The position numbers were made by a program, and so were the translations under genes. Positions 16,549 through 19,110 of a stretch of 22,417 bases of DNA are shown here, piece by piece (positions within the stretch are counted from its first letter, which is position 1; each line of letters starts with the position of its first letter). Under the pieces are notes generated by a model that had not been told where the DNA came from, did not search any database, and saw only the letters and a list, made by a program, of their open reading frames with translations. Origin of the DNA: a virus. Lineage: Duplodnaviria > Heunggongvirae > Uroviricota > Caudoviricetes. Location of the stretch: the IMG/VR virus record IMGVR_UViG_2609459831_000017; one strand, written 5' to 3'.

Positions 16549-17301
16549 TTATCTCGTCACCTTCCTCAATTGCGCTTCCGCGTATGCTTCTTCCTGCCAG
16601 CACTTTGTTACCAGTTTACCAATGACGTCCGCATACCCCTTATACCACTGATAATCGGTCAGGTCTGGTACCAGCTTCTGGACATGACGTCGTGCCAGCG
16701 TGGTCGGTAAACGACTAAACCGGTTTCCATTACAACGCCCACAAATCTTATATACCGGTACGCCATGAAACCGGGTTCTTTTTTCATCCAGAACAATCCC
16801 TTTACCCTTACACCCTCTGCACGCTGTGCTGGCTTCGCCCTTACCATGGCAATGCTGACATAGTTCCTTCACCCATTCTTCCTTGATTACAGATTCCCCG
16901 CGTCTGTAGTGTTTCACCACTTCGCGCAATACATTATAAAATCCCGTACCTGAACAATGCTCACAGCGAGCCTTACTTGCCGCAGACCTGGAGTAATCAG
17001 CAAAGGCAAAACTCACGAGGTAAGGAATAATCTGTAACCGGATTTCTTCACTCAATTTGTTCAATGTCGGGTTATCCAGTGCCATCGCGTAATTTAGCAG
17101 GCCTTCAATCGCAAACTGAGGGTCCTGAACACCAACTTTTGCCAGAAATAAGGCCAACCCAAGTGGTGCTTTCGACTGCACCATCCCCTGCGCTGCCATT
17201 ACATCCGTAATTGTTAAACAACCGGTGCCTGTCGCTGGAGCGTCATCGCTCAATTTTGGAGATTTTGGGGAGTAATATTTTGGTAAGGCTTCAAGGTTCA
17301 T
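16549..17301 (-). CDS. quuQ: late-gene antiterminator Q (phage 21/82 type)
   Basis: 250 aa from ATG at 17299-17301 (MNLEALPKYYSPKSPKL...) with GGAG upstream. Cys/His-rich zinc-binding region (CEHCSGTG, CQHCHGKG, CRGCKGKG, CGRCNG). The track ORF extends 10 codons upstream. Confidence 0.85.
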   Translation of the reverse strand: MNLEALPKYYSPKSPKLSDDAPATGTGCLTITDVMAAQGMVQSKAPLGLALFLAKVGVQDPQFAIEGLLNYAMALDNPTLNKLSEEIRLQIIPYLVSFAFADYSRSAASKARCEHCSGTGFYNVLREVVKHYRRGESVIKEEWVKELCQHCHGKGEASTACRGCKGKGIVLDEKRTRFHGVPVYKICGRCNGNRFSRLPTTLARRHVQKLVPDLTDYQWYKGYADVIGKLVTKCWQEEAYAEAQLRKVTR

Positions 17302-17314
17302 GCTCGTTCTCCAC

Positions 17315-18364
17315 TTACGCCAGTACGCCAATTGCCAGCGCGCGATCGATAAAACGAAATATCAGCTCCAGTTGGGAGCCATACTTATCTTCAAATGCCA
17401 CTGTATCCGTATGCAGCTCGTTGTGATGCTTTCTGCACAAAGGCAACACAAAGAGATCATGTGCTTTTGTTCCCATTCCGCCCTGCCCGTGACCAATCAG
17501 ATGATGCGGATCGTCGGCTGGCATACCGCAGCAAGCACACGGCTGTGTCTTAACCCAACGTGTGTATTTCTCCTTAACCCAGCGGCGACGTTTAGGCAGC
17601 TTCATGAAAGATTCCGGAGACTCTGGATCAACGGTGATGCTTACCACCGTCTTTTCCTGTGGTGATTTTTGTTGCTGGTGGGCGTAAGGCAACGGTGCAA
17701 GATTTTTTGTGCGTTGTTTCAATATGCTGGTGGCGGTCTGCTCTCCCGGTACGATGTCGCTTTCGCGGTACACCGAGCAGATTTTTTCCGCTGGTAATCC
17801 CAGCGAACGACGCGATACAGCCTCAGGTAGTGCATCCACCACCTGATTGCAGACCGCCCACCAGGATAATTCAGCCAAAGATAATTCCCGCTCCTGCGTA
17901 CCGCTTATTGCGTGACGGATGACGTCAATCACCCATGCTGTCAGATTTTGTTGAGCAAGCAGCTCCAGTGATTCCGATGTCTGGTCACGCAGTTGGTTGT
18001 CGCAGTGCCAGCACAACACCATTGCGCCGGTACCATAACGGTGAATGACTGTTTCAGTGTGATGGTAATCGCCATTAGGCCACTGGCAGGATGTAACATG
18101 ACGTAATAGCCAGTCGGACAATGCGCCAACGCCGCCAGCAGCACGAATCACCCGTTCGTTACTAAAAAACGGCAGCAATGTTTTGTCTTCCGCCAGCGGC
18201 TGGCGAACGGCAGGAACGACTCCGGATGGCAGATTACGCATGCTTTTTGGTTCCGGTTCCACCAGCACTCGAGGATTATGAAATATCTGTATGGATTCAC
18301 GGCCCGGCTTAAGGACCACCAGCCCAAGCTCAGGCACCAGAACAGGTCTAAGTAATACCCGCAC
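17315..18364 (-). CDS. ydfU: YdfU-like protein (DUF968) with C-terminal HNH-like Cys/His motif
   Basis: 349 aa from GTG at 18362-18364, 1 nt below the rem stop; an in-frame extension reaches 18403 (362 aa). C-terminal motif QPCACCGMPADDPHHLIGHGQGG...CRKHHNELH. Ends 14 nt upstream of the Q start. Confidence 0.7.
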   Translation of the reverse strand: MRVLLRPVLVPELGLVVLKPGRESIQIFHNPRVLVEPEPKSMRNLPSGVVPAVRQPLAEDKTLLPFFSNERVIRAAGGVGALSDWLLRHVTSCQWPNGDYHHTETVIHRYGTGAMVLCWHCDNQLRDQTSESLELLAQQNLTAWVIDVIRHAISGTQERELSLAELSWWAVCNQVVDALPEAVSRRSLGLPAEKICSVYRESDIVPGEQTATSILKQRTKNLAPLPYAHQQQKSPQEKTVVSITVDPESPESFMKLPKRRRWVKEKYTRWVKTQPCACCGMPADDPHHLIGHGQGGMGTKAHDLFVLPLCRKHHNELHTDTVAFEDKYGSQLELIFRFIDRALAIGVLA

Positions 18365-18365
18365 G

Positions 18366-18644
18366 TTACCTCCAGATCCGTTGCTGGAAAGTGCGGGACG
18401 CACGTGGTGGGCGTTCGGAATAAGGCAGCCTGACAGAGATTATCCAGTGCCGATAGTCGAGACTGAGAGCTTTCTTAACCTCGAACCCGCGCCTGCGGTA
18501 AGAATGAATCAGCCATTCGGCCTGTTCTGCAGTGCATGGAGGGTGCTGGAACCATTCAGACTTGAATGCGTGAGAATACCGCCCGTGCGTGCAGGCAAGA
18601 ACGGGCGAATTATCAGAATTGTAATATTTTGCGTTGCGTGCCAT
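18366..18644 (-). CDS. rem: Rem-like small protein, function unknown
   Basis: 92 aa (MARNAKYYNSDNSPVLACTHGRYSHAFKSEWFQHPPCTAEQAEWLIHSYRRRGFEVKK...) with ATG at 18642-18644, immediately upstream of ydfU. Confidence 0.6.
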   Translation of the reverse strand: MARNAKYYNSDNSPVLACTHGRYSHAFKSEWFQHPPCTAEQAEWLIHSYRRRGFEVKKALSLDYRHWIISVRLPYSERPPRASRTFQQRIWR

Positions 18645-18710
18645 CGGTTTTCTCCGGTGGCACGGTGTTACTCAGCGGGAGTTCAGCCCCGCGCAAGATT
18701 GTAGATGAGT

Positions 18711-18962
18711 TTATTCTCCTGAAAAAGCAGAAAAGCCAGCTTTTATTCCGATCTCTTTCAATGCCTGTAATGAAGTGACAAACTCACCTTCGCGCAAGAT
18801 AAATCCGTCCGTGACCCGAGCATCCACAAAATTAATTAACGCAGCCCCATTCTTTCGCAAACACATAATGCGGTAATGACTAACAAGATTTCCATTTTCA
18901 ACGCACACAGCATAGAGGCCATCTTCACAAAAAATTTTACGCAGTTCTTCGATGTTCATCAT
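18711..18962 (-). CDS. hypothetical protein (83 aa), not recognised
   Basis: ATG at 18960-18962 with AAGGA 5 nt upstream. Candidate sigma-70 promoter (TTGAAG, 18 nt, TAGAAT) in 18963-19077, just downstream of the relBE-hokD terminator. Product MMNIEELRKIFCEDGLYAVCVENGNLVSHYRIMCLRKNGAALINFVDARVTDGFILREGEF... Confidence 0.55.
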   Translation of the reverse strand: MMNIEELRKIFCEDGLYAVCVENGNLVSHYRIMCLRKNGAALINFVDARVTDGFILREGEFVTSLQALKEIGIKAGFSAFSGE

Positions 18963-19077
18963 CAGAATCCTTCCGGATAATTAGCTCTCCCCTTTAAGGG
19001 ACCATCCCTCTTATCCCTGCGCTCTACTTAAGTATTTTTGATTCTATTCCGGCACCGTCCAGAACTTCAAACGCGTT

Positions 19078-19110
19078 GAAAATAAAAACAAAAACCCGCC
19101 GAAGCGGGTT
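19078..19110 (-). terminator. predicted intrinsic terminator of the relB-relE-hokD operon
   Basis: Minus-strand hairpin AACCCGC-UUCG-GCGGGUU followed by UUUUGUUUUUAUUUUC. Confidence 0.55.

Follow-up and report, generated by a model that had tools for sequence, protein, structure and literature searches.

YdfU of the Qin prophage of Escherichia coli K-12: a two-domain protein with a C-terminal HNH / His-Me finger domain, encoded immediately before the late antiterminator gene

Introduction

The 2017 classification of the His-Me finger superfamily placed the DUF968 and DUF1364 families together in group 7, naming YdfU of the Qin prophage and YbcO (PMC5714182). The same work remarked on the RusA and Q neighbours of this group and proposed for it a role in recombination like that of NinG and Ref (PMC5714182). 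A zinc-finger HNH motif had been described in DUF968 proteins in 2014 (PMC4118853). In RefSeq, the homologues from phages SfV, mEp390, 2H10 and P1 are labelled HNH endonuclease, and PHROGs uses the same label. The HNH prediction for YdfU is already known, and the present one goes no further than Pfam, PHROGs, RefSeq and the 2017 paper. A sequence-only reading of this DNA had considered ydfU to be without an assigned function. This is true experimentally: the y-ome survey still lists the gene as uncharacterised, and we found no experimental work or nuclease assay on any member of the family in the searchable literature. The HNH assignment, however, has been published with YdfU named, and its homologues carry the label of HNH endonuclease. 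The small new points of this work are an N-terminal domain without a PDB relative, a PdcB-like branch without the catalytic histidines, and a 66-aa core, encoded upstream of ydfU, that is under purifying selection.

YbcO (DLP12/phage 82; PDB 3g27; DUF1364, PF07102) shares His-Me finger group 7 with YdfU (DUF968, PF06147), but it is a single domain of 96 aa, whereas YdfU has in addition an N-terminal domain of 225 residues and a conserved basic lead-in. Ref of phage P1, a RecA-dependent HNH nuclease (PDB 3plw), has a long helical finger in its core helix, and a disordered basic N-terminus where YdfU has a folded domain (PMC5714182). NinG (Rap) of phage lambda, a branched-DNA-specific HNH endonuclease, belongs to the same superfamily as YdfU and is encoded in the same nin-region neighbourhood before Q. 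The two proteins are assigned to different PHROGs (YdfU to 96, NinG to 171) and have unlike domain layouts; BLASTP of YdfU against lambda NinG gave E-values of 0.15 or worse, and YdfU did not match Pfam NinG (PF05766).

Phage P1 also encodes a full-length homologue of YdfU, PdcB, with 26% identity over 91% of the query. PdcB and YdfU share their matches to PHROG 96 and, in the N-domain, to PHROG 11007, but the catalytic-type histidines of YdfU are substituted in PdcB (H288 to Y, H314 to Q and H318 to E). The pdcB gene (L012:3405-4448) follows phd-doc instead of preceding Q, and it is dispensable for P1 growth. RefSeq calls PdcB an HNH endonuclease despite the missing histidines. Fusions of Orf with an HNH domain in Gram-positive phages were reportedly described by Curtis et al. 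in 2014. The HNH part of these fusions (HNHc_6, PF16784), which have been grouped under DUF968 (PMC4118853), is a near-threshold match to YdfU.

Genomic location and gene order

The window, that is, the whole stretch of 22,417 nucleotides that was analysed, matches K-12 strains of E. coli with 100% identity and is located in the Qin cryptic prophage, according to the RefSeq annotation of C600 and MG1655. On the minus strand the genes follow the order relB, relE, hokD, rem, an unnamed ORF of 92 aa, ydfU and ydfT (quuQ). The four genes considered here are:

18711..18962, minus strand: rem, 83 aa (WP_000980994.1 / b1561; RefSeq C600 and MG1655), 66 nt upstream of the 92-aa ORF
18366..18644, minus strand: unnamed 92-aa ORF, with a conserved 66-aa core and a variable 25-aa N-terminal extension; TAA stop at 18366-18368
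17315..18364, minus strand: ydfU CDS, 349 aa, GTG start at 18362-18364 and TAA stop at 17315-17317 (ORF list and translation; RefSeq C600, MG1655 b1560)
16549..17301, minus strand: ydfT (quuQ), Q-type antiterminator (Pfam Antiterm PF03589, E 3.6e-54; RefSeq annotation), beginning 13 nt past the ydfU stop

The ORF that abuts ydfU had been taken for rem in the sequence-only reading. RefSeq places rem further upstream, and the abutting ORF encodes a different, unnamed protein. The product of rem matches PHROG 340, a family of unknown function. The GTG start that gives YdfU its 349 aa is supported by the homologues, which start at the same alignment column. The product of ydfT also exceeds the Pfam cut-off for the DnaJ CXXCXGXG zinc-finger domain (35.4 against 32.7 bits, residues 148-193).

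A strong Rho-dependent terminator has been mapped upstream of ydfU in K-12 (PMC9160355), and ydfU may be silent in this strain. The stretch concerned is at about 18365-19100 of the window, on the minus strand; upstream of rem there are also a promoter-like site at 19070-19041 and, following hokD, a hairpin with a T-run at 19110-19093. A 1.6-kb region of this locus is matched in 4918 of 5426 complete E. coli genomes, frequently in several copies.

Genomic context of YdfU homologues

A 14-sequence YdfU alignment was used to collect 80 loci from different species. The gene downstream of the YdfU homologue encodes a Q antiterminator in 67 of 78 loci, and these belong to PF06530 (31), PF03589 (15), PF06323 (11) and DUF1133 (10). 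The remaining downstream genes include seven from one unassigned cluster and two that encode RusA. A RusA gene is found within 3 kb of the YdfU homologue in 55 of the 80 loci, mainly upstream, and rusA is absent from the Qin copy of the locus. Searches by tblastn, with the lambda proteins as sole queries, revealed NinG and NinB near the YdfU homologue in none of the 80 loci, which is consistent, as regards NinG, with the two proteins being alternatives to each other.

Individual phages present variations of this arrangement. Stx-type prophages of E. coli have the genes in the order hok, ORF92, DUF968, RusA and Q; in mEp390 it is RusA, HNH and Q; and in phage 82 orf96 (YbcO), a relative with a single domain, lies directly before rus. 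Homologues of YdfU are present in Stx-converting phages. The sequence-only reading had placed ydfU in the slot of the nin region where recombination and nuclease genes are carried, and the survey agrees with this placement, immediately before Q and with recombination genes adjoining. From this slot and the RusA neighbours we infer a role for YdfU, in place of Rap, on intermediates of recombination or replication.

Prophage loci of the enterobacterial type, with YdfU proteins 50-99% identical to that of Qin, were also found on five contigs (L014, L023, L029, L065 and L073) labelled as a Veillonella parvula MAG, a Geobacteraceae MAG, Chryseobacterium, Vagococcus and an Actinomycetes MAG. These off-taxon contigs are likely to represent contamination or mis-binning.

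The C-terminal domain of YdfU

YdfU ends in an HNH / His-Me finger domain, which a predicted linker separates from the rest of the protein:

17642..17686, minus strand: predicted disordered linker, residues 227-241 (pLDDT below 50 in the full-length model; length varies in the alignment)
17318..17632, minus strand: C-terminal HNH / His-Me finger domain, residues 245-349
17411..17539, minus strand: HNH core motif C276-x-x-C279 ... D285-P-H287-H288 ... D303 ... C310-x-x-H313-H314-x-x-x-H318 (sequence, conservation and pairwise alignment)

Read directly from the sequence, the motif is C276-A-C278-C279, D285-P-H287-H288 and C310-R-K-H313-H314-N-E-L-H318, with the letters exactly as first reported. 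Pfam DUF968 (PF06147) matches residues 160-346 with 256.8 bits (E 1.4e-76), far over the cut-off of 27.8, so the motif is not a chance match. PHROG 96, annotated as "HNH endonuclease", covers the full-length protein (E 2.8e-171). Two further HNH profiles stayed below their thresholds: HNHc_6 scored 26.3 bits against a gathering threshold of 26.6, over residues 271-328 only, and the Ref-type RecA_dep_nuc (PF16786) gave a weak match of 17.8 against 26.9 bits.

A structure model of YdfU was built from the alignment of 32 full-length homologues, with identity down to 26%. The model has a mean pLDDT of 86.2 and comprises an N-terminal domain, a disordered stretch and a C-terminal domain. In the C-terminal domain, a strand at 285-288, a strand at 306-309 and a helix at 311-319 form the antiparallel beta-beta-alpha core by which His-Me fingers are recognised. 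Foldseek with the full model against the PDB returned nothing significant (best E 1.4), though the top matches were HNH proteins. Comparisons of YdfU with PDB sequences by phmmer and by profile hmmsearch gave no meaningful match. By structure comparison, Ref is the closest solved structure; the HNH hits stem from the C-terminal domain, because a search with the N-terminal domain alone loses them.

Pairwise BLASTP of residues 245-349 gave E-values of 4e-5 to Ref and 7e-5 to YbcO. In these alignments the CxxC, HH, GTK, D and C-x-x-[C/H]-H positions coincide, and H288, C310, H313 and H314 of YdfU fall on matching residues of both proteins. The likeness of the C-terminus to HNH nucleases, as advanced by the sequence-only reading, is borne out by the two family profiles, the fold of the model, the structure comparison and the alignments with Ref and YbcO.

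Conservation along the domain follows the same residues. The 14 sequences whose motif is intact show no variation at C276, C279, D284, D285, H287, H288, D303, C310, R311, H314 and H318, and the catalytic-type motif is intact in all of the 80 Enterobacterales loci. H288, which lies at the end of the first strand and pairs in the alignments with the His in 'LHHI' of Ref and in 'AHIR' of YbcO, is at least 90% conserved in the 32 sequences. One element of the motif as it was first described is not conserved, namely the Asn of H-H-N-E-L-H. This residue, N315, varies in the family (N/D/R/Q/G), so that the apparent H-N-H spelling of 'HHNELH' is partly coincidental; what is conserved is H288, the invariant D303 between the strands, the HxxxH formed by H314 and H318, and the Cys ligands.

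General knowledge of colicin-type HNH sites suggests roles for these residues. A structural zinc would be held by C276, C279, C310 and H313, and H288 would act as the general base. The catalytic metal would be bound by H287, H314 and H318, in a colicin-like HH...HxxxH arrangement, and D303 may replace the canonical Asn. The C-terminal ~100 residues of YdfU would then be a zinc-stabilised His-Me finger nuclease domain of the DUF968/DUF1364 group. PdcB and three distant full-length homologues (P0319, P0331 and P0386) lack H288, H314 and H318 and retain the zinc cysteines and the cysteines of the N-terminal domain; catalysis is therefore not universal in the family.

The N-terminal domain of YdfU

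The remainder of the protein contains the following features:

17690..18364, minus strand: N-terminal domain, residues 1-225, a separate domain in the model
17996..18088, minus strand: Cys/His cluster C93-Q94 ... H101-H102 ... C118-W119-H120-C121-D122-N123 (conservation and model)

Residues 1-225 presented no Pfam match, and a structure search with this domain found no relative in the PDB. For this reason, the Orf-like N-terminus that has been proposed for Gram-positive DUF968 proteins does not apply to YdfU. A domain like Orf or NinB of lambda was considered and rejected, as neither the Orf (RAGNYA) fold nor a NinB sequence match was found.

The cluster is placed by the model on a hairpin (strands 105-110 and 113-118) followed by a helix (119-125). 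In the alignment of 32 sequences, which reaches down to 26% identity, C93 and C118 never vary, and conservation is 90% or higher at Q94, W119 and D122. A comparison of the N-domain and C-domain profiles in hhalign was co-linear but weak (P = 0.045), and the cluster is possibly a degenerate second HNH finger.

Eight database entries (P0245, P0265, P0276, P0293, P0307, P0309, P0310 and P0376) join the N-terminus of YdfU to domains of tail fibre, J, portal or capsid proteins. They resemble chimeric contigs put together from different prophages and are uninformative on function.

The 92-aa ORF upstream of ydfU

The 92-aa ORF is annotated as a hypothetical protein in C600 (WP_012304870.1; RefSeq/PGAP) and is unannotated in MG1655 (NC_000913.3), where it falls in the gap between ydfU (b1560) and rem (b1561), at 1644306-1644584. 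The 66-residue profile of PHROG 1212 matches its residues 27-92 (E 1.7e-35). A word-based search found 129 relatives, exclusively in Escherichia and Shigella; homologues of 66-67 aa were encountered in Klebsiella, Enterobacter, Citrobacter, Kluyvera and others, where the next gene is either the YdfU homologue itself or a RusA-like gene situated before it. The dN/dS ratio of the core (the C-terminal 66 codons) is 0.11-0.21, similar to that of ydfU (0.12-0.17), and the first 25 codons, at 0.39-0.85, are nearly neutral. The 92-aa ORF is a genuine gene. The annotation can be corrected accordingly: what adjoins ydfU is not rem; it is a conserved ORF, subject to purifying selection, which PGAP calls in other strains but which is missing from the MG1655 reference.

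The family of this small protein had no match in Pfam, NCBIfam, PADLOC or the PDB. The conserved start of the protein, 'WFQH..LTeEQAeELV.RY' (residues 31-50), recalls the N-terminal motif of SH2 domains, and the family profile searched against the PDB and Pfam gave only a non-significant SH2-like likeness at 'WFxH..AEeL' (E 1.6-1.9). PdcA of P1 and NinG of lambda were compared as possible relatives and showed no similarity. A weak match to PHROG 4916 (E 5.5e-4), a family that also spans the NinG C-terminus, was not upheld by pairwise comparison.

An antisense ORF of 137 aa lies over the 92-aa ORF, at 18291-18704 of the window on the plus strand; in phage PhiR42_1 it carries the label of hypothetical protein (L002:3607-4020). 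Purifying selection acts in the minus-strand frame, which suggests that the plus-strand call is spurious.

The junction with ydfU

The end of the 92-aa ORF and the start of ydfU form a compact junction:

18362..18373, minus strand: GGAGG, TAA, C and the GTG of ydfU (direct reading); GGAGG, at 18369-18373, lies within the last Trp-Arg codons of the 92-aa ORF

A single base (C, 18365) separates the TAA from the GTG. The sequence-only reading had located this stop and start correctly, but the stop belongs to the 92-aa ORF and not to rem. The arrangement TGGAGG-TAA-C-GTG is kept wherever the 92-aa ORF directly precedes ydfU in E. coli-type prophages, and 'TGGAGG TAA C GTGCGGGTA' is identical in six loci whose 92-aa ORFs are just 63-70% identical. 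In more distant homologues there is an overlap of 4 nt or 1 nt. The final codons of most of the small ORFs encode Trp-Arg or Trp-Gly (TGGAGG or TGGGGG), and the stop adjoins or overlaps the next start.

The close stop and start, with a ribosome-binding site inside the upstream ORF, have the geometry of a coupled pair. The surroundings of the other homologues must be considered as well. Relatives of the 92-aa ORF are found in only 15 of the 80 species-level loci, and in six a RusA-like gene intervenes before the YdfU homologue. An upstream ORF of any kind ends between -25 and +15 nt from the start of the YdfU homologue in 76 of 80 loci, in 48 of them by a 4-nt overlap, and the genes joined in this way include unrelated ones that encode Rha/ANT antirepressors, KilA-N proteins, RusA and methylases. 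Since whatever gene lies upstream is joined tightly, such junctions are no mark of a specific pair. The suggestion that ydfU and its neighbour form a functional pair gains a little from the preserved junction, but it has to be set against the 15 loci and the equally tight joining of unrelated genes. Translational coupling into ydfU is plausible as a property of the operon, and as such it does not point to a dedicated pair.

Databases also hold fused forms, in which the 92-aa ORF is in frame with YdfU (P0002), YdfU with YdfT (P0003), or YdfU with RusA (P0055); P0001, P0007 and P0107 belong to the same set, which includes internal duplications. These entries are probably frameshifts, small deletions or assembly errors of single genomes.

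Alternative explanations

YdfU could be a protein that does not cut DNA, in which the HNH module would serve as a zinc-stabilised unit for binding DNA or protein, and the N-terminal domain would carry the real role, for example a structural or regulatory one in the early-to-late switch beside Q. The near-universal placement before Q, whatever the Q family, would agree with such a role, as would the lack of a PDB relative for the N-terminal domain and the existence of PdcB and its distant companions, which have no catalytic-type histidines yet keep the zinc cysteines as well as C93 and C118. We nevertheless consider it unlikely, since every one of the Enterobacterales loci, like Qin itself, has the full motif intact, a sign of selection on its residues, and the closest structures are those of active nucleases such as Ref.

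There is even less reason to favour a toxic or defensive nuclease, acting in superinfection exclusion or abortive infection, with the 92-aa protein as its inhibitor or immunity partner. The sole hint of toxicity is the terminator upstream of ydfU, which is among the strongest Rho-dependent ones of E. coli, and such terminators have been discussed as silencing toxic prophage genes (PMC9160355). The neighbourhood, with relBE and hokD in Qin and with pdcB just past phd-doc in P1, and the junction that is kept wherever the small ORF occurs, could also be read in this way. On the other hand, the PADLOC defence models match none of the three proteins, and the supposed partner is missing from 65 of the 80 loci and separated from the YdfU homologue by a RusA-like gene in six. 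In P1, PdcA is unrelated to the 92-aa protein, and the YdfU homologue is without the catalytic residues. Finally, ydfU lies in an early lytic operon before Q and not in a slot for lysogenic conversion. Taken together, we judge this explanation quite improbable.

Homing endonucleases of the HNH type abound in phages, and the nin region has a mosaic structure, so that YdfU might be thought a free-standing homing endonuclease, a selfish element moving among phage genomes. This is very unlikely: the gene keeps one slot, directly ahead of Q, in about 80 species and with several Q families, it does not show the sporadic insertion that homing genes typically display, and strong purifying selection extends over all 349 aa, the large non-nuclease domain included.

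It is hardly conceivable that YdfU is a terminase-associated HNH protein aiding cos cleavage, like gp74 of HK97, for although small HNH proteins of this type occur in many lambdoid phages, their genes adjoin the terminase at the genome end and ydfU lies upstream of Q and the lysis genes, and SfV has a separate HNH gene there (orf53) besides its YdfU homologue, orf45.

Proposed function

We propose that YdfU is a two-domain protein whose C-terminal HNH domain makes it most likely a metal-dependent DNA endonuclease with intermediates of phage recombination or replication as its substrates, and we give this explanation as a whole a probability of roughly 0.6. The ydfU gene closes the early-right (nin) operon of a lambdoid prophage and directly precedes the late antiterminator gene Q. 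The separate N-terminal domain of 225 residues, with its own Cys/His cluster, would most likely select the substrate, and YdfU would work alongside RusA in the slot that NinG/Rap fills in lambda. The 92-aa ORF is a separate small conserved gene whose last codons supply the Shine-Dalgarno sequence of ydfU. With this sequence inside the upstream ORF and its stop one base before the GTG, ribosomes probably re-initiate on ydfU.

A more detailed version of this scheme can be offered, tentatively and with the odds well against it. In this version the N-terminal domain would bind zinc, possibly as a degenerate HNH copy, and would target the nuclease to intermediates of recombination or replication, where together with RusA it would replace Rap/NinG; the protein with the 66-aa core would be a translationally coupled partner, produced in stoichiometric amounts, or an inhibitor.

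Knowledge of what YdfU does would close a gap in the picture of the lambdoid recombination toolkit of RusA, Rap, Orf and YbcO. It might also explain the strong Rho block on transcription into ydfU in K-12.
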